Shown: positions 1 to 36,048, numbered from the stretch's first letter. The stretch is DNA of 54,488 nucleotides from an uncultured Saprospiraceae bacterium (GCA_938002705.1 CALLAG010000197.1:1-54488); one strand, 5' to 3'. Notes: generated by a model not told the origin, from the sequence alone. A program made the numbers and translations.

Positions 1-358
1 TGGACATAGACAAGGCGAGAAGAGGGATTATAGCCTTCGCTAAATGACTGATGAACAACGCAGTATATGTTCATTATATTCGCTTAAGAAAATTTCAATT
101 TTCTGTTCAGCCAAGAATGTAGTAGATAGAGGTACCCTAAATGTAGTTTTAATTTTTCCGGAATGATTAAGATAGATGTGACGCTCATTAAGCATTAGGC
201 GTTTTGAGAGCTTATAATTCTTACACGTAAGAGCTGACTGCGATAGTCATTTTGAACAATTTTAAGAATTGTGAGTATTTCTGATACTTTTGATACCGTA
301 TTCTATAATTACTTACATAATATCTGTTGCATAATAGCCAATAGGTTTCTTTACAATT

Positions 359-3025
359 TTGAACTTAGAAACAAATAATAATAAATCCTTTATATATAAG
401 GCCTTAGATAATTTCCTCACTCAGAAGTTAGCATTAAAGAAAGGAGAGCGTCTATTAGTGTTCTTACTGCAAGTATGCATATGCTTGATAGTAACTGTAT
501 TGCTGATACTTAAGCCATTGTTCTCAGGGATGATGCTTTCTGCTTATAGTGTGGCCATCATGCCATTGGCATATATTCTGATTGCAATTTTTGCAGTGGT
601 GATACATTTTCTGATAAGTGCCCTACAGAGCGATAAGCCATTGTTCCGATCTATATTAATCAATCAATGGATACATGTATCAGCATTATTAGGGATAGGT
701 ATAGTGGTGAGTAATGCTGTCGTTCCTCATTGGATGACAGTAGTTCTATATGTCTATGCTTCTCTATATGCTGTTGTGACAGTATCATATTTCTATCAGT
801 ATTGCCAGTCTATTCTAACCATACGAGATGCTAAGAGGCTGTATGGATATATCGGTGCAGGAGCGATAGCAGGAGGTATCATAGGAGGCTATCTTACTAA
901 TGCTCTTATAGATATAATAGATAAGAGTGGCTTGCTCTATCTCAGTGCTATTTTCTTGATAATTACTTGTGCAATATATTATTACATCGACAGATTAGAT
1001 TCTGAAGACTTAGAGCTTGACTTTGCTCGTCGTCCTAAGGGATTGATAGTTCCTCATGCACTTTCATTACTTAAGAACAGACACATTTTTAATATCGCTA
1101 TGCTGATGGGCTTAGGTGTCGTAGTGAGTAGATTGGTAGATTATCAGTTCAGTTATCTGGCATTAGAGCATGTAGCCAGTAGTAATGATTTAGCCTCATT
1201 TTTTGGATTTTGGTTTTCTACTATTAATGTGATAGGGTTTATCATTCAGTTATTTGTAGTGCATATTGTAGTAGAGCGTTTTGGCATTACATATAGTTTA
1301 TTGAGTATGCCAGTATTGTTATTGCTCGGGCTATTTTTTCTGATCTTTTTTCCAGTTTTATTCTTTGGTATTTTGGTTAAGTCATTTGACGGAAGTCTTA
1401 AGCAGAGTATCTACAAGACAGGTACAGAGTTAGTCATCATGCCCCTGAGCCCTAGTCTGAGACGTAAGGCTAAGACCTTTATAGATGTAGTAGTAGATAG
1501 TCTTGCTACGGGTTTTGCTGGATTTCTAATATATTCATTCAGTAATCTGATGGGGCTTTCATTTATGAAGATTAATGCACTTACAGTTATGACGTGTTGT
1601 GTTTGGATATTCTTCATCATACGTTCTTCTAAGAGTTATAATAAAGTCTTATTTAATCAAATAGAAGTCGACCAGAAATCCGTTAAGTCTAATCCTAAAT
1701 TAACCAATGTCCAATATGTCAAGAATTACATTAATGATCAACGGTCCGCTGGACAGAGTGTAAGAGATGCATTGAAGAGCTTAATGATACACGATAATCA
1801 TAATATACGTGTACTTGCATTGAGGGAGTATGGCCGCCGTTATTATGATAGTGATCGAGCTACAGTATATGAGATGACTAATTCTGATAATAGTGCATTG
1901 CAAGCTGAAGCTTATCGTGTAATCCTGAGTTGGTCTAAGACGCCAGAATCTATAGACAAGTTATATAGAACTACTAAGTTGAATAACCAGCCATATCTAC
2001 TATCAGCGTTAGCTGATACGTTGCACTACAAGGTTCAGATTAAGAAGTATGGGGTACATAGTAAAATCCTCAAAACTTATAGATCATTAACAGATAGCTT
2101 GTATGATAACTATACTCCTATGTCTGAAGGTATCAACCACTTATTTAGAGCAGCCGTCGTATCAAGGTGTATAGAGATCTATCCTGTCATCGAGTCTGAG
2201 TTGTCTTCTAATCTTTCTCCAGCATATCAGAAAGCATCTCTTGATGCGATAGCCTATGGCGCAGATCCATATTTCTTTGATCGATTACTTATCGAGAATG
2301 TACATGTCGGTAATAATGAATCTTACTATAAATGTCTTGCCACCTTTCCTTCTCGACTACTCGCTAAGCTAAAGGCTAACTTGGATAATCCAAATGTGTT
2401 ATTGAGGTATCTACCAGCATGTAGTTACATGGATAATCAGAAGACGGTTAATTTCTTATTCCAACTACTTGATCATAAGAATATAAGGACAAGAAGAAAG
2501 GCTTTGTATATGATTAATTACCTGAAGAGGAATTTTGATTATCTCAATTATAGTAATATAAAGAGTAAATCTAAACTGATTTCGGAAGTAAAATACCTTA
2601 AGAAATTGATGGGTAGTAGCTATGTGTTTTCAAACTTAAAAGTACAAAATCTCAGTGCTCAGGGAGTGAGTAGAGGTCTAAGCAGAGAGATTAATAGTTC
2701 TCTTGTCCGTATATTTATCTTCATAGGATTAATCACTGAGCGAGATGATATGCACTTAATATATAGTGCTATTAAGAGTAAGAGACAGAATTCGGCTTTG
2801 GATATATTAGACAGTGTGCTTCCTTATAGACTGAGAAAAGTTCTTGTCCCTATTATAGAAATTGTCGTTGCTAAAAATTGGACATTAGAGGATCTAAGAA
2901 ATCAAAAAATTAAAATTCCTTCTAATAAAAAAGCTTTCAAATTTGTCAGATCTATACGGGATACGAACCTGAATGTAGCTATCAATGCTTACTTAAAAAA
3001 TAAAGAAGAAGTCGAGCTTGTCTAA
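359..3025 (+). CDS. TLC/Npt-like (MFS-related) multi-pass transporter fused to a C-terminal HEAT-repeat domain
   Basis: 888-aa ORF. The track start is TTG 359, so the true start is uncertain. The N-terminal ~440 aa has about 11-12 hydrophobic helices and the motif RDAKRLYGYIGAGAIAGGIIGGY, reminiscent of ATP/ADP-translocase-like Npt1/Npt2 carriers. The C-terminal ~440 aa is soluble with HEAT-like repeats (HDNHNIRVLALREYG, LDHKNIRTRRKALYMINYL). Confidence 0.6.
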   Translation: MNLETNNNKSFIYKALDNFLTQKLALKKGERLLVFLLQVCICLIVTVLLILKPLFSGMMLSAYSVAIMPLAYILIAIFAVVIHFLISALQSDKPLFRSILINQWIHVSALLGIGIVVSNAVVPHWMTVVLYVYASLYAVVTVSYFYQYCQSILTIRDAKRLYGYIGAGAIAGGIIGGYLTNALIDIIDKSGLLYLSAIFLIITCAIYYYIDRLDSEDLELDFARRPKGLIVPHALSLLKNRHIFNIAMLMGLGVVVSRLVDYQFSYLALEHVASSNDLASFFGFWFSTINVIGFIIQLFVVHIVVERFGITYSLLSMPVLLLLGLFFLIFFPVLFFGILVKSFDGSLKQSIYKTGTELVIMPLSPSLRRKAKTFIDVVVDSLATGFAGFLIYSFSNLMGLSFMKINALTVMTCCVWIFFIIRSSKSYNKVLFNQIEVDQKSVKSNPKLTNVQYVKNYINDQRSAGQSVRDALKSLMIHDNHNIRVLALREYGRRYYDSDRATVYEMTNSDNSALQAEAYRVILSWSKTPESIDKLYRTTKLNNQPYLLSALADTLHYKVQIKKYGVHSKILKTYRSLTDSLYDNYTPMSEGINHLFRAAVVSRCIEIYPVIESELSSNLSPAYQKASLDAIAYGADPYFFDRLLIENVHVGNNESYYKCLATFPSRLLAKLKANLDNPNVLLRYLPACSYMDNQKTVNFLFQLLDHKNIRTRRKALYMINYLKRNFDYLNYSNIKSKSKLISEVKYLKKLMGSSYVFSNLKVQNLSAQGVSRGLSREINSSLVRIFIFIGLITERDDMHLIYSAIKSKRQNSALDILDSVLPYRLRKVLVPIIEIVVAKNWTLEDLRNQKIKIPSNKKAFKFVRSIRDTNLNVAINAYLKNKEEVELV

Positions 3026-3029
3026 AGTT

Positions 3030-4007
3030 CTAATCTTTCGTTGCTTCTTTCATGACAGGTCCAGTCTGATTGAGGGGAAACTTAGCAGGGTCTCTGTTAA
3101 GGCCTAGTGCAGATTCTGCAATTTTGATAAGATCACGGCATATCTTAGAGCCATTAGGATCTTCTATAAGTGCTACAAGGATATACTTACGATCGCCCTT
3201 GCCGTCTATGAGTACGCTATCAGAATGAAAATTTCTCCAAGAGCCAGATTTCCTATACATGATAATACCAGGCTCTAATTTCCTTAGCGTATTGACGAAC
3301 TTATGATTGATCTCAGGTTTGACAAGATATTTTTGCATCTCCTCATTGTATACACTGCTTACTAACTTGCCATAGGCGAGCATCGTATAGAATCGGCATA
3401 CTTGATGTACAGTAGCTCCGTGAGATATCCCAAATAATGGATCTGGCTTTCTAATGTCAGCTTTAGCATATTTTTTTCCTACCCATAATCCACCACCCTT
3501 TTTTTTATCATAGAGATTATAATAGTCATTCTGTAGTACAGTTGCTATAGTCTCCAGGCCTATACGTTCTATCACTCTTGTAGTGGCTTGGTTATTAGAT
3601 TTAGCAATCATAAGTCTCATGTCTTTTTTGAGAGCGTCATCATATGCTAATGTATTGTTCTTAACACACTCCATAGCTGCGAGTAGTACGGCTATCTTAG
3701 GGAGACTTGCAGAATACATCATATGATTACCATTGACAGTGGCATATCTGATGTTCTCTGGATCATGTAAGTCTACAAGCCCTACAGATAATCTTTTCTG
3801 GAGGATGAGATTGCGGTATACTTTATTCTTTGATATTCTATTAATGAGCTGATTCTGTAGATATACATCTACGGTATTCTCCAGTTCTACATACAACTCA
3901 GAGGGGTAAGGGTATGTCCCTGTATTAAATCTATATTGCGCATAGCATGACGATGATAGGGCAATAGCGCCTATAGAAATTATGACTATTTTTATGATAT
4001 TAGACAT
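3030..4007 (-). CDS. Exported beta-lactamase-fold (class A-like) serine hydrolase
   Basis: 325-aa ORF with a signal peptide (MSNIIKIVIISIGAIALSSSCYAQ). The penicillin-binding-fold motifs occur in the right order: S-x-x-K (SLPK), S-x-N (SNN), K-S-G (KSGSW). Confidence 0.7.
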   Translation of the reverse strand: MSNIIKIVIISIGAIALSSSCYAQYRFNTGTYPYPSELYVELENTVDVYLQNQLINRISKNKVYRNLILQKRLSVGLVDLHDPENIRYATVNGNHMMYSASLPKIAVLLAAMECVKNNTLAYDDALKKDMRLMIAKSNNQATTRVIERIGLETIATVLQNDYYNLYDKKKGGGLWVGKKYAKADIRKPDPLFGISHGATVHQVCRFYTMLAYGKLVSSVYNEEMQKYLVKPEINHKFVNTLRKLEPGIIMYRKSGSWRNFHSDSVLIDGKGDRKYILVALIEDPNGSKICRDLIKIAESALGLNRDPAKFPLNQTGPVMKEATKD

Positions 4008-4140
4008 CTTTCAAAGATAGATATAGTGAGTTATAATTACCGTTACAGTTTAGTTAATTTAACTAATTGTAAAGCGAACTTAATATTCTATCGCTAAGTT
4101 GTCCACTATATTAATCACGCTCAATCTAAGTTGTTTTATA

Positions 4141-7035
4141 ATGCAGATACATTCTTTTATACGTACACTATTAGTTGTCAGTGTGATGATAAGTTCCTAT
4201 AGTGGGATAGCTCAGCAGGTATCCAGAAGTCTGATATCAGAGTTTAAGGAAGATGTCAGAGGTCCATATAAAGATATCAAGTGGTTCTGTGATGATGGTA
4301 GTATAAGAGAAGCTCGCGATCCCTGTCCAGAGCCTATGGAAGGCGTCCAGCATGCACGATATAAAGATAATATTGTACAACTGGCAGAGAGGCATCATCT
4401 TTTTTTAGATCAGATACTAACTGGTACAGATCACAATATATTCTGGGATGAGAAGAATCAGAACAGTAGACTCAAGCAGTATCAGATAACTAATTTCCTA
4501 TATGCTGCAGATAACGGATGGATACTCGAGAAAGCTAAGTCCTACCGCGGGGCTAAGCAGGTAGAAGACGAACAGAAATGGGGTCAAGAATTCTTAGAGT
4601 GGCTCGTCAGTAGCGATAGCCGTATAAGAGAGAACTTCCTCCTTATCAGAATGGCTGCAGAAGATATCCCCCATGGAGAAGAAAGTAATGTCAGCCAGCG
4701 GGTCCGGGCCTATTCTAAATTGCTCGCTGACCTTGATCCAAAGTTTATGGATCTCAGAATCAAAATACATAACAACCCTGATAGGGCAGATATAGATAAT
4801 GTAGAGAAATGGACTACAACCCACGCGGACAGATTATCAAAGCAATCTAAGGAATATGCTACATCACTAATAGATGATATGAAAGTCATGTACAGGCCCT
4901 TCTCCACAGAAGATGTCAATGATTACTTAAGATATCTGCCTAAAGAATCTGATATATATTCTCATATCAAAACATTCAGCGATAATCATGCAGACAGCCC
5001 TGCTGCTCTCAGGAGTATAGAGATATGCGGACTACTTGCTAAGATCAGGTCTGACATCTATGACACTAAGTGGAGTGTAGCCAGAGTAAAGCTTATAGAT
5101 CTGAGTAATTATCTGGAGGATGTCCTCATGCACAGTATCGGAGACTGGGATAATAATACGATTACTGACATCAGAGATAATCTATGTTTTCTCACAGAAG
5201 CCGTCTATGGTTGTGGTTATATAGAACTGTGGGAGTACGAGAAATTACAGAATGATATGGGGTGGCTACATGGATCTCACGTCAGTGTAGAACATCTTAA
5301 TACCTACATATATAATACTCAGAAGATAGTGTTGTGGTCTACCCAGATGCTACAATCATTATATACTGAACCAGTTAATGAATTCAGAAATTTTGAGCCG
5401 CTGGTAGGAGGATTTGTAGATGACAAGATAAGATCTACTATTGTGTTAAGTGTAGGGCAGATCGTCTCTAGCCTGAAAGAAAAATTTAATACATATGCAG
5501 ATAGGACTTCAATCATTATGAATAAAAAAAACATAGCTGGTATACAAGGTCTTAATCCAGGCATAGCTAAAGGTATTATAGAAGTTGTATCTCAGTTACC
5601 TGAGAATGTAGATCTTGATGCAGATAAGATATACGCATTCGATAGGCCTCCTGCAGATCTTAAGCCTGTCGCTGGGATACTTAATGTACAAGAAGGTAAT
5701 CCTGTGAGTCATGTACAGTTGCTTGCTCGTAACCTAGCTATACCTAACGGTCTTATAAACTCAGAGCTGCTAGATTATCTTAAGAAATATGATGGCGAAG
5801 AAGTCTTCTATGCTGTCTCTCCCAAAGGAACAATAGTACTGAAGTTAGCCAAAGAAATGTCTAAGGAGGAGAGTAAGATATTTAAAAATAAAAATGAGGA
5901 TAAGAAGCGATTAACGATCAGTACTTCTAAGATAATACTACATCCTGATAGCCTTCTTGATATGTCTAAGATAGATGCCAGCTACAGTGGGATATGGTGT
6001 GGTCCCAAGGCCGCTAACCTCGGTCAGCTTAAGCAAATGTTTCCAGACAATGTTGTAGATGGATTTGTAATTCCTTTCGGTGTATTCAAGGATCATATGG
6101 AGCAAGATATACCTGGGATAGGAGAGAGTTACTGGACTTACCTCAAGCGTATATTCTCTAATGAGAAATTAATGTATGCTCAGGGATTAGATAGAAAAGA
6201 GATAGAATGTATCACACTACAAGAGCTTAACTACCTGCAAGAACTTATAGAGAAAATGCCTCTCAAAGATGGTTTTATCAAAAATATAGAATCTCACTTT
6301 AAGACAATTTTCTCTGCTGATATAGGACGTGTTCCTGTGTTTCTGAGAAGTGATACTAATATGGAGGATCTACCAGAATTTACGGGAGCAGGTCTGAATC
6401 TGACATTGTTTAATGTATTAGAAAGACAGAAAATATTAGATGGAATCAAGAAAGTATGGGCATCGCCATATACAGAAAGAAGTTATCAGTGGAGACAACA
6501 GTACCTTGATAATCCAGAAGATGTCTATCCCAGTATACTGATAATCCCGAGTGTAGACGTAGATAAGTCAGGTGTAATTATCACTAAGGGAGTCAGTAGT
6601 GGAGATGTAGATGCTATAAGTATATCATTCAGTAAAGGCGTAGGTGGTGCCGTAGAGGGACAATCCGCAGAGAGTTACGTCATACACAAGAGCGGCTACA
6701 TAGAGCTGATAAGTCCAGGTCGAGAGACAAAGTACAGAGTAATCCCACCTACAGGAGGATCTACTTTACGATATAATTCTCTAGACAGATCGGTACTTTC
6801 TGATACCGACCTCTTAAGTCTTAGAGATATGGCCACAAGTATAAGTGATAAGATGGATACGGTCAGCCCAGCTGGAGGTCCTTATGATATAGAATTAGGT
6901 ATAAAAGATGGGAAAATATGGTTATTCCAAGTTAGACCATTCGTAGAAAATAAAGAGGCTAATGCTTCTCTATATTTAGAATCACTAGACCCTAAGTTTG
7001 ACGATAAGCTAATACCGTTAGACGATACCAAATAG
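4141..7035 (+). CDS. PEP-utilising-family dikinase-like protein: unknown N-domain, then phosphohistidine swivel domain, then C-terminal PPDK_N ATP-grasp domain
   Basis: Track ORF is 4099..7035. The likely start is ATG 4141, giving MQIHSFIRTLLVVSVMISSYSGIAQQ, which looks like a signal peptide or anchor. The mid region matches the PEP-utilizer mobile His domain (GLNPGIAKG..., GNPVSHVQLLARNLAIPNG). The C-terminal ~400 aa matches the PPDK_N nucleotide-binding domain (GPKAANLGQL, FLRSDTNMEDLPEFTGAGLN, VWASPYTERSYQWR, DIELGIKDGKIWLFQVRPF). The first ~450 aa are unrecognised. Confidence 0.75.
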   Translation: MQIHSFIRTLLVVSVMISSYSGIAQQVSRSLISEFKEDVRGPYKDIKWFCDDGSIREARDPCPEPMEGVQHARYKDNIVQLAERHHLFLDQILTGTDHNIFWDEKNQNSRLKQYQITNFLYAADNGWILEKAKSYRGAKQVEDEQKWGQEFLEWLVSSDSRIRENFLLIRMAAEDIPHGEESNVSQRVRAYSKLLADLDPKFMDLRIKIHNNPDRADIDNVEKWTTTHADRLSKQSKEYATSLIDDMKVMYRPFSTEDVNDYLRYLPKESDIYSHIKTFSDNHADSPAALRSIEICGLLAKIRSDIYDTKWSVARVKLIDLSNYLEDVLMHSIGDWDNNTITDIRDNLCFLTEAVYGCGYIELWEYEKLQNDMGWLHGSHVSVEHLNTYIYNTQKIVLWSTQMLQSLYTEPVNEFRNFEPLVGGFVDDKIRSTIVLSVGQIVSSLKEKFNTYADRTSIIMNKKNIAGIQGLNPGIAKGIIEVVSQLPENVDLDADKIYAFDRPPADLKPVAGILNVQEGNPVSHVQLLARNLAIPNGLINSELLDYLKKYDGEEVFYAVSPKGTIVLKLAKEMSKEESKIFKNKNEDKKRLTISTSKIILHPDSLLDMSKIDASYSGIWCGPKAANLGQLKQMFPDNVVDGFVIPFGVFKDHMEQDIPGIGESYWTYLKRIFSNEKLMYAQGLDRKEIECITLQELNYLQELIEKMPLKDGFIKNIESHFKTIFSADIGRVPVFLRSDTNMEDLPEFTGAGLNLTLFNVLERQKILDGIKKVWASPYTERSYQWRQQYLDNPEDVYPSILIIPSVDVDKSGVIITKGVSSGDVDAISISFSKGVGGAVEGQSAESYVIHKSGYIELISPGRETKYRVIPPTGGSTLRYNSLDRSVLSDTDLLSLRDMATSISDKMDTVSPAGGPYDIELGIKDGKIWLFQVRPFVENKEANASLYLESLDPKFDDKLIPLDDTK

Positions 7036-7038
7036 AAA

Positions 7039-8289
7039 ATGATTATGAAAAGTCTACCAATAATAATTTTAATTTGCTTAAGTCAAAGCATCAATGCATA
7101 TCCCATCGATGGGTATAAATATACAGGAATAGAAAGGTTACTCTACCAGTGGAGGATATACCAAGACTCTGCTGTAGACTCTAAGCTTAAGAAAGGCGCT
7201 TTTCTTATGATGGATGACATTAAGTTGTCATTAGTAGGAAAGGACTACGACTGGTCTACGCCTAAAGATAAGACAGTGCAGAGAACTGTAGACGGTATCT
7301 TCAGATCTTTAGAGCCGCAATATAGCCTTAGTGTTATGGATATATCGTCACCAGATAATATTAGATATGCAGAAAAAAGGGAGGACGTCGGTTACCAACC
7401 AGGTAGCGTAGGTAAGTTAGCTATCACAGTAGCACTGTTCTACGAGTTGTCTCGAGTATATGACAATGATTGGGATAAGATACATGCAGTGCTATACACT
7501 AAGAAAGTGAAAGCAGGACCGTGGAGTATACCTAACCATCACACGGTTCCTTTCTATGATATAAAAAAAGATAAATATACTAAGCGTAAGATAGTCCCTA
7601 CTGATGAGTTTACTCTATACCAATGGTTAGACCATATGATGTCAGTGAGTAGTAATGCAGCTGCAAGTATATTAATGAGAGAAGCGATTCTTATACATAT
7701 AATGGATAAGAGATATGACTGCGCCAGTTATGGAGATATGGATGCCGTATTTGCAGATACTGATAAATCTATCTTGGCAGACTTGTCAGAAGATATAATG
7801 AATTGCCCACTAAGAGAACTAGGAATCGATGATGACGAATGGAGATTAGGAGGTTTTTTTACAAGAGGAGCAGAACCTTACGTACCTCGTCAAGGAGGCA
7901 GCACCGGTACTACCAGGGGCCTAATGAAATATATGCTTGCAATGGAACAAGGTAAGATTGTAAATGAGAGAGTATCCTTAGAGATCAAGCGATTAATGTA
8001 TCTCACTGATAGACGTATAAGGTATGCCAGTTCTCGTACAATAGCTGATGATGCTGTTTATTTTAAAAGTGGAAGTTTGTATAGTTTCAAGGATGAACCA
8101 GGATTTGTCAGAAAGCAATATGCTGGTAATAAATATAACTATATGAACAGTATCGCTATAATAGAAAAACAAGATAGTACGCAGAAGAAATATATGGTGG
8201 CTCTAATGAGTAATGTATTAAGAAAGAATAGTGTATCAGAGCACTATGGACTTGCAAGCCAGATAGATGGACTAATTATGAATGAATAA
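7039..8289 (+). CDS. Exported beta-lactamase-fold serine hydrolase (second copy, 416 aa)
   Basis: Signal peptide MIMKSLPIIILICLSQSINAYP. Motifs S-x-x-K (SVGK), S-x-N (SSN) and K-S-G (FKSGS) are present. It starts 4 nt after the stop of the upstream dikinase-like gene. Confidence 0.65.
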   Translation: MIMKSLPIIILICLSQSINAYPIDGYKYTGIERLLYQWRIYQDSAVDSKLKKGAFLMMDDIKLSLVGKDYDWSTPKDKTVQRTVDGIFRSLEPQYSLSVMDISSPDNIRYAEKREDVGYQPGSVGKLAITVALFYELSRVYDNDWDKIHAVLYTKKVKAGPWSIPNHHTVPFYDIKKDKYTKRKIVPTDEFTLYQWLDHMMSVSSNAAASILMREAILIHIMDKRYDCASYGDMDAVFADTDKSILADLSEDIMNCPLRELGIDDDEWRLGGFFTRGAEPYVPRQGGSTGTTRGLMKYMLAMEQGKIVNERVSLEIKRLMYLTDRRIRYASSRTIADDAVYFKSGSLYSFKDEPGFVRKQYAGNKYNYMNSIAIIEKQDSTQKKYMVALMSNVLRKNSVSEHYGLASQIDGLIMNE

Positions 8290-8463
8290 GAGCTTTCTTA
8301 TAAGCTTAAGTATATTTGTAATTACAACAGCATAGATATCGAGAATAAAGAGATTATAGCATTAAGTGATACCCTATACGAAGCATCAAGGTCCATCAGA
8401 GTACTTAGGTCTGTTAACTGGGGTTTAGAGGTTAAGAAGGATTTCTTTGCTCAAGATGCCCAA

Positions 8464-9585
8464 GTGTTACCTAATGTGTCCTACCCTCAGTATGACCCAT
8501 CAGATACTTTAAGGTTAGTAGAAGCTGCTCGGGCTATGATAGATTCCTCTGGTCCATTCAGTGCATGGGGACATAGGATCGCTGATAAGCTAGAGTACGG
8601 TTCCAGAATGTTATCTGCGATGGGTACTCCGGCTTTCTATACTAATTCTGCTAAGTTGTATGGAACTCCTAAAGATCTATTGCCTGATGGCGAGACGAAT
8701 TCTCTTGACTTGGCACTGTTCTTTGAGGAGATGTATCAGAACATTGATAAGCTTGATATCGATGCTAATTTTCCTGAGATATATACATCTCAGCATATGG
8801 CTGATAGATTACTTGTAGAGGTAGATAAAATGTTTGGTGATGATGCTCCGGCGATCGTCATAGATGATGATGTGTCATCTAAGGTTATAGCTGGACGGAG
8901 GAGGATACGCATACGATCTACAGCGATGTTTGATGACAACGATATAGATCAGTTAGTCCATCATGAGGCTTTTATCCATGTAGCGACTTCTATTAATGGA
9001 CATCGGCAGAAGAAGATAAAGATACTGCGAGCGAGCCACCCTGGTACGACCAAGACGCAGGAAGGCTTGGCGGTTTTTGCAGAGTTTATAACGGGACATA
9101 TTGATCTTGAGCGTATAAGGCGATTGTCAGATAGGGTTGTCGCTATACAGATGGCTGTAGACGGTGCAGATTTTATAGAAGTCTATCGATACTATCTTAA
9201 GAGAATAGGGCATAAGGATAATGCTTACGAGAGTGCACGACGGGTATTCCGTGGGGGTGTGATTACTGGTGGTGCACCATTCACTAAAGATATGGTCTAC
9301 TTAGATGGTTTATTGCGAGTACATAATTTCCTGAGGGTCGTCGTGTCATCAGGTAAGGCTAAGTTACTGCCATTATTATTCGCTGGTAAGATGGACCTTA
9401 AGGATATCGATGTTATGATCAAGTTAGAAGAAAGAGGACTTATAGATCCACCTAAGTATATGCCGCCTTGGATGACAGATATTAGATTTTTGCTTACATA
9501 CTTAGCGTACTCTTCATTCCTTAATAGTGTCAAACTGACTAAGCTTAAAGACTACTATGCTGAGCTTATAGGTGTCCACAGATAA
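8464..9585 (+). CDS. DUF1704 / QEGLA-motif protein (MATCAP-type metallocarboxypeptidase family); true start probably upstream of 8464
   Basis: Carries the family-defining TKTQEGLAVFAEF (QEGLA) motif and an HExxxH-type site (HHEAFIHV). The reading frame stays open for 58 more codons upstream (8290..8463) with family-like sequence, but contains no ATG/GTG/TTG. See findings. Confidence 0.75.
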   Translation: MLPNVSYPQYDPSDTLRLVEAARAMIDSSGPFSAWGHRIADKLEYGSRMLSAMGTPAFYTNSAKLYGTPKDLLPDGETNSLDLALFFEEMYQNIDKLDIDANFPEIYTSQHMADRLLVEVDKMFGDDAPAIVIDDDVSSKVIAGRRRIRIRSTAMFDDNDIDQLVHHEAFIHVATSINGHRQKKIKILRASHPGTTKTQEGLAVFAEFITGHIDLERIRRLSDRVVAIQMAVDGADFIEVYRYYLKRIGHKDNAYESARRVFRGGVITGGAPFTKDMVYLDGLLRVHNFLRVVVSSGKAKLLPLLFAGKMDLKDIDVMIKLEERGLIDPPKYMPPWMTDIRFLLTYLAYSSFLNSVKLTKLKDYYAELIGVHR

Positions 9586-9586
9586 T

Positions 9587-10288
9587 TTAATCATAATAAT
9601 CTTCTATCGCTACGACAGGCTTATAGTAGGTCTTATCTAAGACGAGCACAAGGATCAATAGCAAGATGTCAAACGCTAAACTTACATAGATACCAAAATT
9701 ACTTATTGTACCTATCAGCGAGCCACTGTCTGCATCAGCGGCATATATGATGATCTGGAATATATTATTAGCCATACTTAAGGCGATGGTGGTGAGTACG
9801 ACTTGGATGGTGTATTTCTTAAAGCCTAATAGCATGATACCTCCAATAATAAATAATACCGCGATAAACATGCCTATGTAAGCAAAGCGAGTTTTCCAAG
9901 TCTTTCTGTAATCTGAAATGAAAACGGTATTCTGCATAGTCGCTTCAAAATCGACATTACTATTCTCATCAAGTAGAATTGTATCTGAAAGGAGGTCGAG
10001 TATTTTTTTATCCTCTTCAGATAAGTCTTCTACTTTTTTGGTGTTTTTAGAACTTAGAGTATCAAGTAATTCCGCGTCAGGGATACCATCCAGATCATTC
10101 ACATCGTCGATATCCATATCAGAAACAGTATCATCATTGTCATAATTATTATTGACTTCGACGACTGATTCATTCATTAATTCTGTTATCTCAGGCAACA
10201 TGAGATCTCCTGCTCTATTGAGAGCACCACATCCACCGAATAATAACATGAGTATTCCTACCGCAATAGCCCAACCTGGTCTTTTCAT
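9587..10288 (-). CDS. Hypothetical membrane protein with an acidic linker
   Basis: 233-aa ORF. It has an N-terminal hydrophobic segment, a D/E-rich central region and 3 C-terminal hydrophobic helices. No family recognised. Confidence 0.55.
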   Translation of the reverse strand: MKRPGWAIAVGILMLLFGGCGALNRAGDLMLPEITELMNESVVEVNNNYDNDDTVSDMDIDDVNDLDGIPDAELLDTLSSKNTKKVEDLSEEDKKILDLLSDTILLDENSNVDFEATMQNTVFISDYRKTWKTRFAYIGMFIAVLFIIGGIMLLGFKKYTIQVVLTTIALSMANNIFQIIIYAADADSGSLIGTISNFGIYVSLAFDILLLILVLVLDKTYYKPVVAIEDYYD

Positions 10289-10554
10289 ATGTGTCAGATT
10301 TATAACGAAATATAGCTATTAAATGGGGCTAAGCTGGAAAAAATCGACCAAGAAGCGTGATTTTTTTACGATTTAGAAATCCAAATGTAAAGTAATATCG
10401 TATATCAAAATATTCTAAGTCATAGATTCACTTATTAAAATTAGAGACGAATAGCTTAGGAGTAACGTTTTATTAAAATAAAACACTTTATAGATGCAAC
10501 CATTTAGCACCTAATGACATATAATAAATAGAAACAAACTACAAAGCGATCAAA

Positions 10555-10812
10555 ATGGAAACGATAGATATGAATGAGAGGAGGCCAATAACGATAAATC
10601 CGAACCTGAAAAAAGGTGAACTAAAAGTACTTAATAGATCTAATACTAATAAATACAGCTGGTTCTTAACAGATACAGATGGCAATATATACCGTAGTGG
10701 CTGCGAAAAGACAAAAGAAGTAACGATAGATATTAATGATATAGAAGAGGGAGTATATAGATTCAGAGCTCAGGGTGAAGTATTTGAATTTAATGTAGGA
10801 ATCGCCTCATAG
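10555..10812 (+). CDS. Small stand-alone protein resembling a T9SS type-A C-terminal sorting domain
   Basis: 85-aa ORF. The pattern ITINPN..GELKV...TDTDGNIY...VTIDINDIEEGVYRF parallels the Por_Secre_tail consensus (PNP...l.i...D..G..v...idis.L..GvY). There is no signal peptide and no passenger domain. It is followed by its own terminator hairpin. Confidence 0.45.
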   Translation: METIDMNERRPITINPNLKKGELKVLNRSNTNKYSWFLTDTDGNIYRSGCEKTKEVTIDINDIEEGVYRFRAQGEVFEFNVGIAS

Positions 10813-10850
10813 AGAAAAAATATAGTTAGTTAGAAGTTGATTTTATACAA

Positions 10851-10887
10851 AAGCTTGTTGAGATGTGTGCTCAGCAAGCTTTTTTCT
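10851..10887 (+). terminator. Rho-independent terminator after the 85-aa ORF
   Basis: AAGCTTGTTGAG / CTCAGCAAGCTT 12-bp stem with one G-U pair and a 7-nt loop, followed by TTTTT. Confidence 0.6.
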
Positions 10888-10919
10888 TTTTAATCATGAT
10901 TATTATAACTTGTGGATCT

Positions 10920-11657
10920 ATGAAAAATTATATAGATGTTCTAAGAGATATGGTATTTATATCATTGTTATTATTTACTATTTCTTGTAAGCAAGATAGC
11001 TCCATTACGACGTTCCAGATGACTACAGATAAAATAAGAGTCGATGGTAAAATGGATGAATCAGCCTGGCAGAATGCAGAATGGAGGCCCATAGATCAAG
11101 CATGGTTAGGTGCAGGGTATAGTGCAGAGGATTTTTCTGGAAGATACAAGGTCCTATGGGATAAAGATAGATTGTATGTCATAGCAGAGATAATAGATGA
11201 TACATTAGTAGATATCCATGCTGATGGCTTAGACAGATACTGGGATGATGACTGCCTTGAGGTATTTATTGATGTAGATGCGTCAGGAGGTGACCATCAG
11301 TATAATTATAATGCATTTGCATATCACATTGCGCTAGACGGTAAGGTTGTAGATATGGATGTAGACAGTCTCCCTCACTATTACAGTCATGTCACTAATG
11401 CAAGGACACAGAATGGTAATATGACAACATGGGAGCTCGCTATACAACCCCACGATGATACTTTCGTAAGAAATAAACCTTATGATAAAGTCGAGTTGTC
11501 CCCTGGAAGAAATATAGGATTTGCGATAGCTTATTGTGATAATGATCATAGTAAGGAGAGAGAGCATTTCGTAGGATCTATAGCTGTAGAAGGGGAGGAT
11601 AAGAATCGAGGATGGATTGATGCTGGGATATTCGAAAAGGTTAAACTTGTCAAATAG
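10920..11657 (+). CDS. CBM9-like (carbohydrate-binding family 9 / DOMON-like) lipoprotein
   Basis: Start moved to ATG 10920, because the track start at 10863 lies inside the upstream terminator. Lipoprotein-like N-terminus (...LLLFTISCKQ). Contains DGKMDESAWQNAEW...RYKVLWDKDRLYVIAEIIDD, typical of CBM9_1-type domains. Confidence 0.6.
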   Translation: MKNYIDVLRDMVFISLLLFTISCKQDSSITTFQMTTDKIRVDGKMDESAWQNAEWRPIDQAWLGAGYSAEDFSGRYKVLWDKDRLYVIAEIIDDTLVDIHADGLDRYWDDDCLEVFIDVDASGGDHQYNYNAFAYHIALDGKVVDMDVDSLPHYYSHVTNARTQNGNMTTWELAIQPHDDTFVRNKPYDKVELSPGRNIGFAIAYCDNDHSKEREHFVGSIAVEGEDKNRGWIDAGIFEKVKLVK

Positions 11658-11669
11658 ATATTCTTCATA

Positions 11670-12398
11670 ATGAGAATAATCAGCACTGTACCTTCCATCA
11701 CAGAATTGCTATATGATCTCAGCTTAGAAGATGAAGTCGTAGGCATAACTAAGTATTGCGTACATCCAGAAAAGTGGTATCGATCAAAAGAAAGAATAGG
11801 TGGTACGAAGACACTCAACCTAGATAAGATTATATCTATCAAGCCTGACCTCATAATCTGCAATAAAGAAGAGAATGTAAAAGAACAGATAGAGAAGCTG
11901 TCTATTAATCACAGTGTGCACATTACTGATATAAAAACAATAGCGGATAATATAGAACTCATATCTTCTATAGCTGAGCTGACAGATAGAGTCTCTCATG
12001 GCATAAAGCTTACAGATCAATATAAAAATTCTGTAAGTAAGATCATGCAATCTGTCAACAGAAAATCTGCCGTCTACCTCATATGGAAAGAGCCATTAAT
12101 GTCAGTCGGTGATGACACATATATACATAGCGTAATGGACTTATGCGGGATAGAGAATAAAATGAGAGGTCAGCAGAGATATCCCACCATAGATATGGAT
12201 ATGCTAAAATCGATGAGTCCTGACCTCCTATTACTCAGTTCAGAACCTTATCCATTTAAGGAAAAACACATTCAATATTTTCAATCACATCTACCCGATA
12301 CTAAAGTTATTCTGGTAGACGGAGAGGTATTCTCATGGTACGGCACAAGACTCATTAAGAGGACTAAGTACTTAGTAGAATTAATGGAGTCATTATAG
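11670..12398 (+). CDS. Periplasmic-binding-protein family (BtuF/TroA-like, cobalamin/siderophore-type) protein
   Basis: 242 aa. The N-terminus RIISTVPSITELLYDLSLEDEVVGITKYC and KPDLII are typical of helical-backbone class III substrate-binding proteins. Confidence 0.6.
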   Translation: MRIISTVPSITELLYDLSLEDEVVGITKYCVHPEKWYRSKERIGGTKTLNLDKIISIKPDLIICNKEENVKEQIEKLSINHSVHITDIKTIADNIELISSIAELTDRVSHGIKLTDQYKNSVSKIMQSVNRKSAVYLIWKEPLMSVGDDTYIHSVMDLCGIENKMRGQQRYPTIDMDMLKSMSPDLLLLSSEPYPFKEKHIQYFQSHLPDTKVILVDGEVFSWYGTRLIKRTKYLVELMESL

Positions 12399-23184: not shown

Positions 23185-24134
23185 TTAAAATATCTTGGAT
23201 TTTGTATTTCTTTAGGACCGCTGTCTCTCTTTATATCATACCTTACGATTAGTTCAAAGCTTCCATTCTCATATTGATTAATCTCTGTAGTCGTAAAGTC
23301 ATAGGCAATACCTGCGAATATACTCTTGCTGACACGCAAGCCTAAGAGTAGATCTACTGATTCTACTATGCTGTTCTGTGATCCACCAGTTCTTATATTT
23401 AATCCCATATGGACCTGATCTCTGTAGGTCATCAGACCTAGAACATCGACGTCATAGGGACTTGTACTTGCAGCTTTGAATAATACCGAGGGCGAAAATA
23501 TCCAGTCGTGACTTAGTCTTATATCAACGCCAGCAGTAGCATAGTAGTGATGCACTTCTTTAGCTACGAATGGATCAAGATCTGCATCGATATCTGCCTT
23601 GATAAAACGTGGTACGGATACACCAAAATAATAATTAGGTCCCTTGTAGTAGCCACCTATTCCTACATTAAATATATTTCTACTGAATCTTTCTCTGCTT
23701 ATCGCAATGTCTTCGTCGAATCCGTTAATAGCTATCAATCTCGTATCAGTGAAGTCATTGACAAAGTTTCTATAGGACATTTGTAGGCCCACACTTGCAT
23801 AGCCGTTGGCTAGTCGTATTCTATAGGCGTACATTCCCGTTATGTCAGTTTTGGATTGTATGCCTATGCTTTGTCGTTGTACTTGTACACCGAAGCCCAG
23901 TCTCTCACTGACTGTCGGAAAGTTAACCGTCAGCATCTGAGTCTGCGGTCTACCCTCAAGGCCTGTCCACTGATCTCTATAGATTCCTGTTATGCTCGTG
24001 TAATTATTTTCGCCAGCAACTCCTGGATTGAATGATAGCTTGTTGTAAGTATATTGGGTAATCAGATTCTCTTGCTGACTGTAAGCAGCAGATGATATGA
24101 TGATTATAATGGCTGTATATAATATCCGCATCAT
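23181..24134 (-). CDS. PorP/SprF family T9SS membrane protein (cognate partner of the upstream type-B cargo)
   Basis: 317 aa with a signal peptide. The N-terminal motif ITQYTYNKLSFNPGVAG is typical of PorP/SprF. There is an ATGA overlap with the adhesin stop. Confidence 0.85.
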   Translation of the reverse strand: MMRILYTAIIIIISSAAYSQQENLITQYTYNKLSFNPGVAGENNYTSITGIYRDQWTGLEGRPQTQMLTVNFPTVSERLGFGVQVQRQSIGIQSKTDITGMYAYRIRLANGYASVGLQMSYRNFVNDFTDTRLIAINGFDEDIAISRERFSRNIFNVGIGGYYKGPNYYFGVSVPRFIKADIDADLDPFVAKEVHHYYATAGVDIRLSHDWIFSPSVLFKAASTSPYDVDVLGLMTYRDQVHMGLNIRTGGSQNSIVESVDLLLGLRVSKSIFAGIAYDFTTTEINQYENGSFELIVRYDIKRDSGPKEIQNPRYFK

Positions 24135-27100
24135 AATTCTATTATTATAAATCCCTGGAGTGGCATAGAGCCATCACCCAGATCTATGATGTAGAAGTAG
24201 GTGCCCACAGGAAGTACTTGACCATTGTAAGTACCATCCCAGTCATTTTCGTAAGGTGCTGCACTGTAGACTTCATCACCCCATTGATTAAAGACGATAA
24301 GGTTATTCTGTCTGAAATTATTATTACTCAGACATGGTATGACGAAGTTGTCATTGAATCCATCATTATTAGGAGTCATAATATTGCCGGCAAAGCATTC
24401 TATATCGTCACCGATTTCTATGGTGATCGTAGCTTGGCTGCATATGTCTTCGCAATCTAAGTAGCAGATTTCATATGTGAATTCTACTATGCCTACATAA
24501 CCTGATTCTGGGGTATAGTTCAGTACATTATCATCTATTGTCAGATCTCCTCTTTCTGGATCTGTAATAATAGTCAGTGTAGCTGCAGTAGATAACTCAT
24601 CATTAAGAAGCGGCCTCATAATTATATCATCATCAAATGCTCCTATGTAATTATCATCATTAGCGATAATCTGATCTACCACAAATGCGATTAATGTATC
24701 ATTGCCATAATTGCCACATTCGCCGAAGTTGCTTCTGAGTATAAGTGTATTATTGCCTGATCTTAAGTTGCTGAATGAGGTGTTGTTGTTTTGATTCTGG
24801 AATATATTTATCTCGGGATCTGGTGATGTCCATTCGTAATCGACTTCTGATATAATATTGTCTGGAGTGATATTGAAGAATTCGACATTGCATAAAGTGA
24901 TAGAATCTATATCAACAGATGTTATATCTTCCGGGATATTGAAGATGTCTATTGTTAAAGTTTCACTCGATTCAGAAGAACAATTATCTTCAATAATTAC
25001 AGCTGCTAATTCTATAGAGGACTGGCTTGAGCCCAATAAGAAGCTTAGGTCAAAACAAAGACTTCTTTCTTCCATAAGTATCGTACCAGAGGACACATCT
25101 ATGATCTGGACTAAGTCATATTCTTGCAGATAATCTTCTATACATACTTCTAATTGAGAATTAGTGCTATTGCATATTGAGAGGCTTGTAGATACAAATT
25201 CTGGAGCTATTGGTCTCGCAATGACCTGTAGGTTAAGCACGTCACTTAATGGTGAGGTGCAAGCACCCATCTCCGTATATACCTGATAGTTACCTTGTTG
25301 AGATATGGATATGTTATCTATTATTAACTCAGGCGTATCTTGTGTGATTAGTCCTGTAGGTGTCTGCCAGAGGTATGTAGATCCCTGCATTAGTTCCGTT
25401 GTAAGTATTAATCTATCTCCCTCACATATCATAGTAGGTCCGCTGATAGAAGGGACTTGTGGTAGGTCTATTATACTGACATCTATAGAAGATGAAGGCT
25501 GTGATCTGCAAGTGTTCTGTTCTTGTATGACGGAGTATTGACCTAAGTCTTGAGTACTGATATTGTCTATAGTAAGCGAAGGAGTTGTCGTGGTGACAAT
25601 ACCTTGTGGTGTTGTCCATATCCAAGTTGCTGTTCCACTTACAGGATTTAGAATACTGATTGTTACAGTAGAATTTTCGCATGCCATAATATCTCCCTGC
25701 AGTAATGCGACTTGTGGTATCAGTGATATGTCTACTGTATTAGTAGAAGGGTCAGAGACGCAATCTCCATTGCTAACTATAAGAGTGTATGTGCCATTGT
25801 CGGATAAGTCAGCATTGGGGATTATTGCTACTGGTTCATTAGAGTTATAGTTATTAGGACCGCTCCACGTGTATGTGTAGTTGCCTGCAGGGAATACCGA
25901 CGGGACGAGTGATATCGGCGTAGAGCCGCTCATGCATGGTAGTGATGTATTACTCAATGCGGTGATGATTGGTTTAGGCCTTACGGTGACTTGTGTAGTT
26001 GTGGTAGCAGAACAATTACTTTGTGTTGTGACATTGACAGTGTAGGTGCCACTCACAGCATTTATCGTTATTTCTCTTCCAGAGAATGTATTGCCCTGAG
26101 GTCCTACCCATTGATAACTTGCTCCTGGTATAAATGTCGATGTCAATGTCACCTGGTCTCCTTCGCAGATAGGCCCATTGTTAGATGCACCTACATTAAG
26201 TACTGACTCTACTGAAATATTAAAGACTTCTGACTCCTCAGATAAGCAAAGTCCGTCTTCTGCGATGACAGTCCATTCTCCAGATTCATTGATACTTATG
26301 GATGGAATAAGTAGATTGTTAGTTGACGTAGAATTATATAATAATCCGTTATTGTACCAATGGTATCTTGTTGCTGTACTTATATTATTAACCGATAGGA
26401 CAGCACTCTGACCTACGCAGTATATGGACTCACCAGTTATTTCAGGTGTGATTGGTGGTTGGAATATCACTACCTGTGCAGTAACGATATCTGATACACA
26501 ATCTCCTTCATTAATAGTAAGTGTATAATTTCCTTGATTAATAATACTTGCGTCATTGATGACTGCAGGGATCTGGCCTGTGGAAAGATATCCATTTGGA
26601 CCCATCCATTCATACGAGAAGTTAGGACCTGCTGTAGCGCTTTCGAGTACAATATCATCACCTTCGCAGATTGTAATAAATGGATTAGTAATAGCGGCTA
26701 CGGGTATGGGTTTGACTTCTATAGTGAAAGTATTCGAAGGATTTGAATTACAGTTCTCTCCCATGACTTCTACGTAATAGAAGTGCTCACCTATAGTAGG
26801 GGTTATAGAAAGGCTTGGTCCATCAGTCTGTCCTATTAATATGCCATTAGGTGATATGCCTTCATACCAGAAATAATCTACGATCTCAGTGAAACTTGTA
26901 GAATTAAGTAGCACGTCATCGCCAGAGCAATATATGGTCTGACTAGAGGAGATCTCTGGACTGTCAAATAGGCTTACCTCTATCTCTGCTTCTCCAGTAT
27001 ATACACATCCTTGGTTAGTTGTAATCTCTAATCTATAGATTCCAGAATTATCGTCATTGATGGACGTCAGTATAGGGTCACTTTGGTCAGAAATAAAATT

Positions 27101-31234: not shown

Positions 31235-31310
<76 letters not shown>

Positions 31311-31391
31311 AAATATATCTTTATCTACATTTATCTATTCAATTTGACTTCAATAAATGTAGTGTTTAAATTCCTCACTTTGAGGTATTTG

Positions 31392-31480
31392 CGGTGGAGG
31401 AGGGATTCGAACCCCCGGTACCGATTTCTCAGTACGCTGATTTAGCAAACCAGTGGTTTCAGCCACTCACCCACTCCACC
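31392..31480 (-). tRNA. tRNA-Ser (anticodon GCT), long variable arm
   Basis: The minus strand reads GGTGGAG...CTGGT TTGCTAA ATCAG, then a long variable arm, then GGGGG TTCGAAT CCCTC CTCCACC G. Length is 89 nt with no encoded CCA. Confidence 0.9.
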
Positions 31481-35647: not shown

Positions 35648-36026
35648 AGGAGTGTACGCTTTATCGCTCTGATGCAGATCAGAGAGGAAAGTCCGGACAA
35701 CGTAGAGAACTGCACCATCTAACGGGTGGATATGGAATCCTGAGGATTCTGTATTATCAATGTAACAGAAACAAACTACCTCACTCAGATGCTTCTGAAT
35801 GAGGAAAAGCTGAAACCGTAGGGTAAGAGCCTACGCATGGTTATGGTAACATGATCATGGGACATATTGCAGGTTGTAATGTCAAGTATACTTCGATTTT
35901 CCCCTCGGGGAAGTAGAGTTTCTCGCTCTATTCATTTTATGTATTCGGAGAGGGTAGGCAGCATAGATAAATGATAAAGGTCCCGACTTGTCGGGATACA
36001 GGATCCGGCTTACAGTACACTTTTAT
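35648..36026 (+). ncRNA. rnpB: RNase P RNA, bacterial type A
   Basis: Universally conserved GAGGAAAGTCCGGAC (35692..35706) and the 3' P4 strand ACAGGATCCGGCTTA (about 35998..36012). P1 pairing is AGGAGTGTAC (35648..) with GTACACTTTT (..36024). The region is GC-richer than the flanks and no ORF covers it. Ends are good to a few nt. Confidence 0.85.
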
Positions 36027-36048
36027 ACTTAAGTATAGTATGATAAAT

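Follow-up and report, generated by a model that had tools for sequence, protein, structure and literature searches.

A four-gene envelope module of Bacteroidota and Balneolota joins a predicted exported dikinase to an NTT-HEAT transporter homologue and two beta-lactamase-fold proteins

Near one end of a 54,488-nt stretch of DNA from an uncultured Saprospiraceae bacterium (GCA_938002705.1 CALLAG010000197.1:1-54488; hereafter the window, meaning the whole stretch that was analysed), the genes for a dikinase (DIK), for a small and a large serine enzyme of the beta-lactamase fold (BlaS and BlaL) and for a metallopeptidase of the MATCAP/DUF1704 (QEGLA) family lie almost end to end. Which of these genes belong together, and what could an ATP-using enzyme that carries an export signal be doing outside the cytoplasm? 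An earlier reading, made from the sequence alone, had answered the first question by taking the four genes for one compact cassette. The packing is as it described: a listing of open reading frames (ORFs) recovered BlaS at 3030..4007 on the minus strand and, on the plus strand, DIK at 4141..7035 and BlaL at 7039..8289, with 3 nt between the latter two. Its domain calls also held when checked against profile hidden Markov models. The membership of the cassette, by contrast, did not survive comparison with other genomes.

When genomes were scanned, one for each species, at least 534 relatives came up; 80 loci were taken, and gene content was counted by tblastn and by all-against-all clustering of 1188 ORFs over 86 dikinase loci, the window included. 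The first two homologous neighbourhoods, from Cellulophaga and Portibacter, hold DIK, BlaL, BlaS and a HEAT-repeat protein of ~940 aa, and MATCAP is in neither. Over the 86 loci, DIK is found in 86, BlaL in 81, a fusion of an NTT-type transporter with HEAT repeats (NTT-HEAT) in 71 and BlaS in 67, most absences being loci clipped by contig ends. The clustering disclosed no fifth conserved gene, the next commonest family being present in only 12 of the 86 loci. Among the 55 loci, all from different species, that extend for at least 9 kb on each side of the dikinase, all four genes are present in 49, BlaL is the only partner in five, and BlaL and BlaS are the partners in one; MATCAP occurs in none of them, nor in any of the 85 dikinase loci other than the window. 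The reverse search, seeded with the transporter, gave 79 metagenome loci; BlaS, DIK and BlaL are all present in 26 of the 28 that have full flanks, and the two exceptions are the most distant transporter paralogues (25-26% identity), which lie in other contexts. The genes occur in three orders, represented by 61 loci, four loci (the window type) and one locus, and the module holds together through rearrangement. The DIK-BlaL pair is retained, with BlaL placed after DIK in 81 of 86 loci at a median gap of 2 nt, and BlaS is usually paired with the transporter gene at a median gap of 47 nt. The neighbourhood check thus removes MATCAP from the proposed cassette and supplies the fourth member that had been missed, the NTT-HEAT gene at 359..3025 on the plus strand. 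The true unit is almost certainly a four-gene envelope module made up of NTT-HEAT, BlaS, a predicted exported dikinase and BlaL.

How widely is this unit distributed? The identical four genes were found in Aliifodinibius, which I take to belong to the Balneolota, and the range of the module is Bacteroidota plus Balneolota, with conservation in marine Bacteroidota. The module is found in several hundred species, and its sequence divergence tracks taxonomy, with identities of 60-87% within Saprospiraceae and ~45% to Flavobacteriaceae. When the loci were clustered, no mobile-element genes were found flanking the module, and no PADLOC defence model matched it. Full-text literature searches aimed at this composition found no described system, in agreement with what the sequence-only reading had stated, and those on periplasmic ATP or kinases and on exported dikinases found nothing usable. 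Two more distant exported dikinases, of ~30% identity (L091 8325..12922 and L092 8201..12382), keep a Bla-fold neighbour and have no NTT gene within 10 kb. Because a Bla-like gene is kept there and a nearby transporter is not, the pair of DIK and a Bla-fold enzyme is the deep core of the system, and the link with NTT-HEAT is specific to the Bacteroidota/Balneolota form. The partner in L091 is a protein of 521 aa, BlaS-like in its C-terminal half, with an N-terminal extension of ~250 aa that has no assignment; in L092 it is a BlaL orthologue, followed by an unannotated membrane protein of 457 aa. The latter was considered as a HEAT-less NTT, and it is not one.

Why, then, does MATCAP abut BlaL in the window? 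The gene (8282..9585, plus strand) is a clear member of its Pfam family (MATCAP, PF08014; E 3.3e-120) and carries both signatures that had been ascribed to it, HExxxH in the form HEAFIH at 8962..8979 and QEGLA at 9058..9072; with the NCBIfam QEGLA model (TIGR02421) it scores 267.7, below the equivalog cut-off of 338.65. The RimK-like ligase named as the usual neighbour of bacterial QEGLA genes lies beside this gene neither in the window nor in the complete loci of the relatives L086, L088 and L089, and the window gene differs from the MATCAP/DUF1704/TIGR02421 QEGLA proteins in this respect as well as in a frameshifted 5' end. In the relative that is closest by its dikinase (87% identity), a Cys/Met PLP enzyme comes after BlaL. 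In relatives at 78-81% identity (L089, L093, L095), three unrelated metabolic genes, for OsmC, the Cys/Met enzyme and a hydrolase/AA-kinase, come after BlaL, and MATCAP begins 4.3 kb downstream of it. In L088 the cassette is wholly missing, and the backbone runs from DUF2891 to MATCAP, a 216-aa protein, CBM9 and TroA. Related Saprospiraceae thus either have the whole module or lack it entirely at a single place in the chromosome, between DUF2891 and MATCAP (L088 8001..11828, L089 1..9308, L083 4702..15941). The cassette is a block that occupies, or is absent from, a fixed backbone site, and MATCAP is a backbone gene and a bystander to the module; in the window lineage a deletion removed the OsmC, Cys/Met-PLP and hydrolase/AA-kinase genes and so brought MATCAP against the stop codon of BlaL.

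The junction itself had been described as showing frame continuity at 8289/8290, which is correct in so far as a single TAA (8287-8289) parts the BlaL frame from a frame that is open from 8290 to 9585. The first canonical start (ATG, GTG or TTG) in that frame is nonetheless GTG 8464, and the homologous MATCAP coding sequence begins ~50 codons before it. An ATG at 8282, in the +1 frame and overlapping the BlaL stop, encodes MNKSFLISLS and its frame stops at TAG 8333; the peptide has counterparts in M-EPSFL of the orthologue from L089 and in LIS of that from L087, at the protein and the DNA level. ATG 8282 thus appears to be the ancestral start of MATCAP, followed by a frameshifting indel. Between a conserved CTT and a conserved ATT the window is 13 nt shorter than L089, which accounts for the shift, and this is located at the palindromic TAAGCTTA (within window 8278..8470). 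The independent contig L086, which shows three base differences over 241 nt nearby, shares the lesion, so the frameshift is not a one-off assembly error. The MATCAP gene of this lineage is probably crippled, or else expressed from a non-canonical or a downstream start. Stop-codon readthrough or a BlaL-MATCAP fusion was also considered as the cause of the frame continuity and rejected, since BlaL ends where its homologues end and the N-terminus of MATCAP lies in the +1 frame.

These observations bear on the first of the explanations to be weighed, namely that the two Bla-fold hydrolases, the dikinase and MATCAP constitute a single pathway for phosphorylating and trimming a peptide or polymer. 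In its favour, the four genes are contiguous both in the window and in the near-identical, independent contig L086, where the gaps are of 0-3 nt. Set against this are the absence of MATCAP from all 85 other dikinase loci, its distance from BlaL in the nearest lineages, its occurrence without the cassette in L088, its lack of a signal peptide when the three other proteins are predicted to be exported, and the frameshift at its 5' end. I give this explanation next to no credence, and as a conserved system it is refuted. Since the adjacency of MATCAP is a lineage-specific deletion junction, the idea of three peptidase-like enzymes trimming a phosphorylated peptide is undermined; what stands of the pathway inferred earlier is an uncharacterised phosphotransfer system tied to Bla-fold enzymes.

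What kind of enzyme is the dikinase? DIK (964 aa) begins with a predicted signal peptide (4141..4215) and a novel N-domain (4216..5505), which are followed by a phosphohistidine swivel domain (~5533..5856) and by an ATP-grasp domain (~5953..6975). The last of these was identified by Pfam PPDK_N (PF01326) at residues 621-942 (E 3.7e-30, 105.8 bits against a cut-off of 27), and in a profile search of the PDB the family profile matched the ATP-grasp of PEP synthase at 7.9e-26. The motifs RSDTNMEDL (within FLRSDTNMEDL, 6340..6372), WASPYTERS and QVRPF are invariant in the cassette-linked clade and mostly retained in distant active members. The swivel domain called by the sequence-only reading is less directly visible, as Pfam PEP-utilizers was undetected in the window protein even at E<=10, either in the N-terminal 500 aa or in residues 454-653. 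Its assignment can be made from three indirect lines. First, residues 471-549 line up, in a search with the family profile, with the phosphohistidine domain of PEP synthase 8a8e, His on His (domain E 0.0088). Second, PEP-utilizers (PF00391) matches the aligned segment in six distant active relatives, above the cut-off in three (24.8-27.4 bits against 23.1) and below it in the other three. Third, His524 (5710..5712), which lies in the conserved motif EGNxVSH(524)VQLLARNLGIPN, is retained wherever in the family the catalytic motifs are retained, the only exceptions being two degenerate paralogues that lack it. The catalytic apparatus, ATP-grasp and His-swivel, is intact in its sequence, and with these two domains DIK is a member of the PEP-utilising 'dikinase' superfamily of the PEPS/PPDK/RPH type. 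The two degenerate paralogues, P0410 (L090 10001..12865) and P0419, still have a signal peptide, the Cys pair and the N-domain, but neither the catalytic His nor the ATP-grasp motifs are left in them, and Pfam matches nothing. P0410 is solitary, with T9SS-type (Por_Secre_tail) genes around it. The two may act as binding proteins or be pseudo-enzymes.

The homologues of DIK are all ~965 aa long (17 to 85 were compared). Confident AlphaFold2 models were obtained, with a pLDDT of 84.7 for residues 28-620 and of 87.2 for residues 440-964. When the C-terminal half was submitted to Foldseek, rifampin phosphotransferase (RPH) was the best match (E 8.4e-21), followed by HpeI, PEP synthase and PPDK; the isolated ATP domain superimposes on that of RPH with a TM score of 0.87 and an rmsd of ~3 A. 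The N-terminal ~430 aa are modelled as a small beta unit and a large all-alpha domain. No Pfam domain was found in residues 1-500 at E<=10, and a Foldseek search of the PDB with the model of the N-domain and swivel gave only non-specific helical-repeat noise (best E 0.37), which supports the earlier claim that the N-domain is novel. Out of 1.84 billion proteins, 423 representative clusters have this domain. In the best 150 of those listed, the full-length proteins are all ~920-1040 aa long and have the domain at the identical place, for which reason it seems confined to this architecture.

The superfamily of PEP synthase and PPDK also includes RPH, phenylphosphate synthase, HpeI and PigC/RedH, and the comparison with RPH is the closest. 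The two enzymes have in common a PPDK_N ATP-grasp, a swivel with a conserved catalytic His and an acceptor domain that is not a TIM barrel, and the chemistry expected of DIK is accordingly that of RPH, ATP + X + H2O -> AMP + X-P + Pi. They differ in the order of the domains, which is acceptor, swivel, ATP-grasp in DIK and ATP-grasp, acceptor (RIF-binding), swivel in RPH, and in the signal peptide and conserved Cys pair of DIK. They differ also in the acceptor domain, which in DIK is unrelated to any solved fold; the Foldseek matches of the N-domain do not include RPH. The NCBIfam scores of DIK are correspondingly low, 61.6 bits against a cut-off of 999 for RPH (NF041857) and 93 against 598 for PEPS, and PigC is also far below its cut-off. 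PEP synthase and PPDK proper have the order ATP-grasp, swivel and C-terminal TIM barrel (PEP-utilizers_C), whereas DIK has no TIM barrel and ends with the ATP-grasp. The plant alpha-glucan, water dikinases (GWD/PWD) have an N-terminal substrate-binding region, a His domain and a C-terminal PPDK_N, without the PEP/pyruvate TIM barrel. In linear domain order, compared by general description, GWD resembles DIK, but DIK has no CBM45 or CBM20 and its all-alpha N-domain bears no carbohydrate-binding signature. DIK is thus distinguished by a new acceptor domain and by a permuted domain order.

Where does the enzyme act? DIK, BlaS and BlaL, like all their aligned homologues, begin with a short hydrophobic segment that ends in small residues. 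For the two hydrolases this bears out, by inspection, the signal peptides reported earlier, and the dikinase proves to have one as well. In ~100 homologues the N-terminus of DIK comprises a positive n-region, an h-region of 10-14 residues and a cleavage site of the A/S-Q type. The start of the mature protein, RGPYxxIxWFCxDG...C, is conserved, and Cys50 and Cys62 (4288..4326) are invariant even at 25-30% identity. DIK is taken to be exported because of the signal peptide together with this Cys pair, and all three proteins are predicted to be. Some BlaS proteins look like lipoproteins, that of the window (LSSSC) among them, and BlaS is possibly one. It could be objected that the hydrophobic N-terminus of DIK is an uncleaved anchor or an annotation artefact, in which case the enzyme would be cytoplasmic and the transporter would serve another purpose; the hydropathy of this N-terminus is indeed under the 19-residue transmembrane threshold, and the signal peptide was judged by eye. 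The regularity of the n-region, h-region and cleavage site in all ~100 homologues, the two invariant Cys residues just past the predicted cleavage site and the clear export signals of both partner enzymes make this objection very improbable.

The fourth member of the module is an inner-membrane protein of 888 aa composed of a TLC/NTT-type membrane domain (~440..1612) and a soluble HEAT-repeat domain (~1676..3022). Pfam TLC (PF03219) matches it at E 6.7e-9 (35.5 bits against a cut-off of 21), and HEAT_2 at residues 472-552. The profile of the family matches the solved plastid ATP/ADP carrier AtNTT1 (9j3j, E 3.5e-12) and, over positions 470-740, HEAT/alphaRep proteins; the membrane part has 12 hydrophobic segments in residues 28-418, and homologues are annotated at source as 'Npt1/Npt2 family nucleotide transporter'. 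The protein is therefore assigned to the NTT/TLC family as an NTT-HEAT fusion; it may transport adenine nucleotides in exchange mode. Such fusions form a monophyletic clade to which no function has been assigned (Major, Embley & Williams 2017, PMC5381601); they occur widely among free-living bacteria, in cyanobacteria and in Chlamydiae. The window protein has the architecture of the NTT-HEAT fusions of the TLC/NTT ATP:ADP antiporter family (TC 2.A.12), an N-terminal NTT domain and C-terminal HEAT repeats. Unlike the published clade, for which no partners are described except cNBD domains in some lineages (PMC5381601), in its subfamily genes for an exported dikinase and for two Bla-fold proteins nearly always accompany the transporter gene. 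Distant NTT-HEAT paralogues occur outside the module (L159 8993..13593, L161 5452..12817). One comes directly after a second, HEAT-less TLC-type transporter and is followed by genes for a PAS histidine kinase and for a SpoIIE-type response regulator. That of L161 adjoins a PAP2 phosphatase and a 949-aa protein without detectable domains, which was examined as a degenerate dikinase and is not one.

The two remaining proteins, BlaS (325 aa) and BlaL (416 aa), both match Pfam Beta-lactamase2, at 5.6e-16 and 7.7e-7, respectively. The intact SxxK/SxN/KSG centres reported for them are confirmed and are invariant across homologues: S101LPK (3696..3707), S137NN (3591..3599) and K253SG (3243..3251) over 36 BlaS sequences, and S123VGK (7405..7416), S204SN (7648..7656) and K343SG (8065..8073) over 29 BlaL sequences. 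In BlaL a stretch of ~80 aa is inserted between SxxK and SxN. Comparison by hhalign (96.9%, E 1.3e-10) shows the families to be remote paralogues, and their motifs align with each other. Similarity to solved structures is faint, as phmmer against the PDB gave no match for either protein and the BlaL profile likewise none; the single solved relative that sequence comparison brings out is cyanobacterial PBP-A Tll2115, which the BlaS profile matches weakly (E 0.0019). BlaS and BlaL share with class A beta-lactamases and with PBP-A Tll2115 the Beta-lactamase2 fold, the SxxK/SxN/K(S/T)G motifs and export signals. They differ from these enzymes in being very divergent and in the insertion of BlaL. 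No equivalent of the omega-loop general base Glu166 could be aligned with confidence, the resemblance to solved class A enzymes being too faint to map single residues. BlaS and BlaL are predicted to be serine enzymes of the class-A-beta-lactamase/PBP-A fold with intact active centres, and they are deep new branches of the beta-lactamase/PBP fold.

Two accounts of the module start from these enzymes. According to one, both serine enzymes are PBP-A-type DD-peptidases whose substrates are the stem peptides of peptidoglycan, and DIK phosphorylates a muropeptide or another envelope component, the whole serving to remodel the cell envelope. That the best solved relative of BlaS is a DD-peptidase, that the alignments show no obvious Glu166 equivalent, and that the proteins are all predicted to be extracytoplasmic and the module widely and stably conserved would fit this account; the weakness of the PBP-A match and the dispensability of the module in close relatives do not, and I know of no ATP-dependent phosphorylation of peptidoglycan in the periplasm. 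I regard envelope remodelling as unlikely. According to the other account, equally doubtful in my view, the module is an island for the inactivation of antibiotics or xenobiotics in the periplasm, where an RPH-like phosphotransferase and two beta-lactamase-type hydrolases would detoxify one or more natural products and the transporter would only fuel the kinase. The nearest structures of the ATP-grasp, RPH and the small-molecule kinase HpeI, speak in its favour, as do the complete catalytic triad of the Beta-lactamase2 fold and the presence or absence of the module as a block between relatives. The divergence of the module, however, follows taxonomy over several hundred species and looks ancient and vertical, not like that of a mobile resistance island; mobile-element genes are missing from its flanks, and DIK departs from RPH in profile score, domain order and acceptor domain.

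The explanation that I tentatively prefer, as possible and short of probable, is that the transporter feeds the dikinase with ATP. NTT-HEAT would move ATP from the cytoplasm to the periplasm, in exchange, presumably, for the AMP or ADP and the phosphate released by DIK. The ATP-grasp domain of DIK would pass the beta-phosphate of ATP to His524, and the swivel would then deliver this phosphate to whatever acceptor the N-domain binds, with the chemistry of rifampin phosphotransferase, phenylphosphate synthase and PEP synthase. BlaL, which would be translationally coupled to DIK, and BlaS, which would usually be co-transcribed with the transporter, would attack an amide or ester bond in that substrate by way of acyl-serine intermediates, and would thereby either make the acceptor or consume the phosphorylated product. 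As to the acceptor, a small-molecule xenobiotic or antibiotic is perhaps the best candidate, if at less than even chances, a cell-wall-derived peptide of the D-Ala-D-Ala type is a serious second one, and something else altogether is a lesser possibility.

Several points weigh against ATP export. The direction of transport and the substrate of NTT-HEAT rest on inference, and the characterised NTTs import nucleotides into parasites and plastids. The transporter is not nearby in 5 of the 55 full-flank Bacteroidota loci, and because of these loci and of L091 and L092, supply of ATP by an adjacent transporter cannot be universal. The HEAT domain has so far no place in the mechanism. Since the acceptor domain has no detectable relative, the substrate of DIK is a guess, and BlaS and BlaL could be binding proteins or sensors instead of enzymes acting on that substrate. 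The export signals themselves were judged without a dedicated predictor. Some of these points favour a different arrangement, in which the transporter imports a nucleotide-like or phosphorylated periplasmic product, or salvages AMP, and DIK uses another donor or runs in the direction of ATP synthesis. PPDK-type reactions are reversible, and exported members of the DIK family exist without an adjacent NTT. All characterised NTTs, moreover, act as importers or exchangers (PMC5381601). The full conservation of the nucleotide-binding motifs of the ATP-grasp argues the other way, as does the fact that no high-energy phosphoryl donor is known in the periplasm; import or salvage by the transporter is distinctly improbable.

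The module lies in an ordinary chromosomal context, as indicated by the genes for tRNA-Pro(TGG) and tRNA-Ser(GCT) at 31235..31480 (minus strand) and for a class A bacterial RNase P RNA at 35648..36028 (plus strand, 169 bits). Its G+C content is the same as that of the remainder of the window, and the nearest homologues and loci bear Saprospiraceae labels. BlaS and DIK diverge from an intergenic region of 133 nt (4008..4140) that presumably contains the promoters of both genes; Rfam gave no match in it, and no riboswitch or RNA leader in 1..11000. A scan for sigma-70 promoters and terminators stayed at background level, the sigma-70 model being uninformative for promoters of Bacteroidota. Beyond MATCAP, the minus strand encodes at 9587..10288 a 233-aa protein with four hydrophobic segments and an acidic, Asp/Asn-rich loop, without family match. 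Because a counterpart of ~216 aa holds the equivalent position after MATCAP in L088 and L089, this protein may be the real conserved partner of MATCAP. Farther on, two genes in tandem (10863..12398), in synteny with L088, encode an exported protein that is CBM9-like and a binding protein of the TroA-like 'helical backbone metal receptor' kind, and a very large ORF of 1941 aa occupies 24131..29956 on the minus strand.

For the reading of genomes from sequence alone, the locus carries a caution: a packing of genes at 0-3 nt can be the scar of a recent deletion and not the sign of an operon. The corrected module is more interesting than the one first proposed, in that it associates an exported ATP-dependent enzyme with an ATP/ADP-translocase homologue in free-living bacteria. 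The new acceptor domain and permuted order of DIK and the deep branches formed by the two Bla proteins bear on the discovery of substrates and on how 'beta-lactamase' annotations in marine Bacteroidota are to be read. The periplasm is regarded as ATP-free, and the phosphoryl and acyl transfers known there use lipid-linked donors. Here a conserved ATP-using enzyme with an export signal, catalytically intact to judge by its sequence, has as its genetic partner a transporter of the ATP/ADP translocase family. Should the proposed mechanism be true, a regulated supply of ATP to the envelope would be implied, and the textbook rule that periplasmic enzymes avoid ATP would be broken. It is a tentative thought that bacteria may have here a dedicated system, the first of its kind, for driving chemistry in the periplasm with ATP, in which a free-living bacterium would run an NTT-HEAT of the 'energy-parasite type' in reverse so as to feed a Sec-exported dikinase. 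The module gives the NTT-HEAT clade, whose function has been unassigned since 2017, a specific partner enzyme and a testable direction of transport, and, if the mechanism holds, it would give that clade a function.

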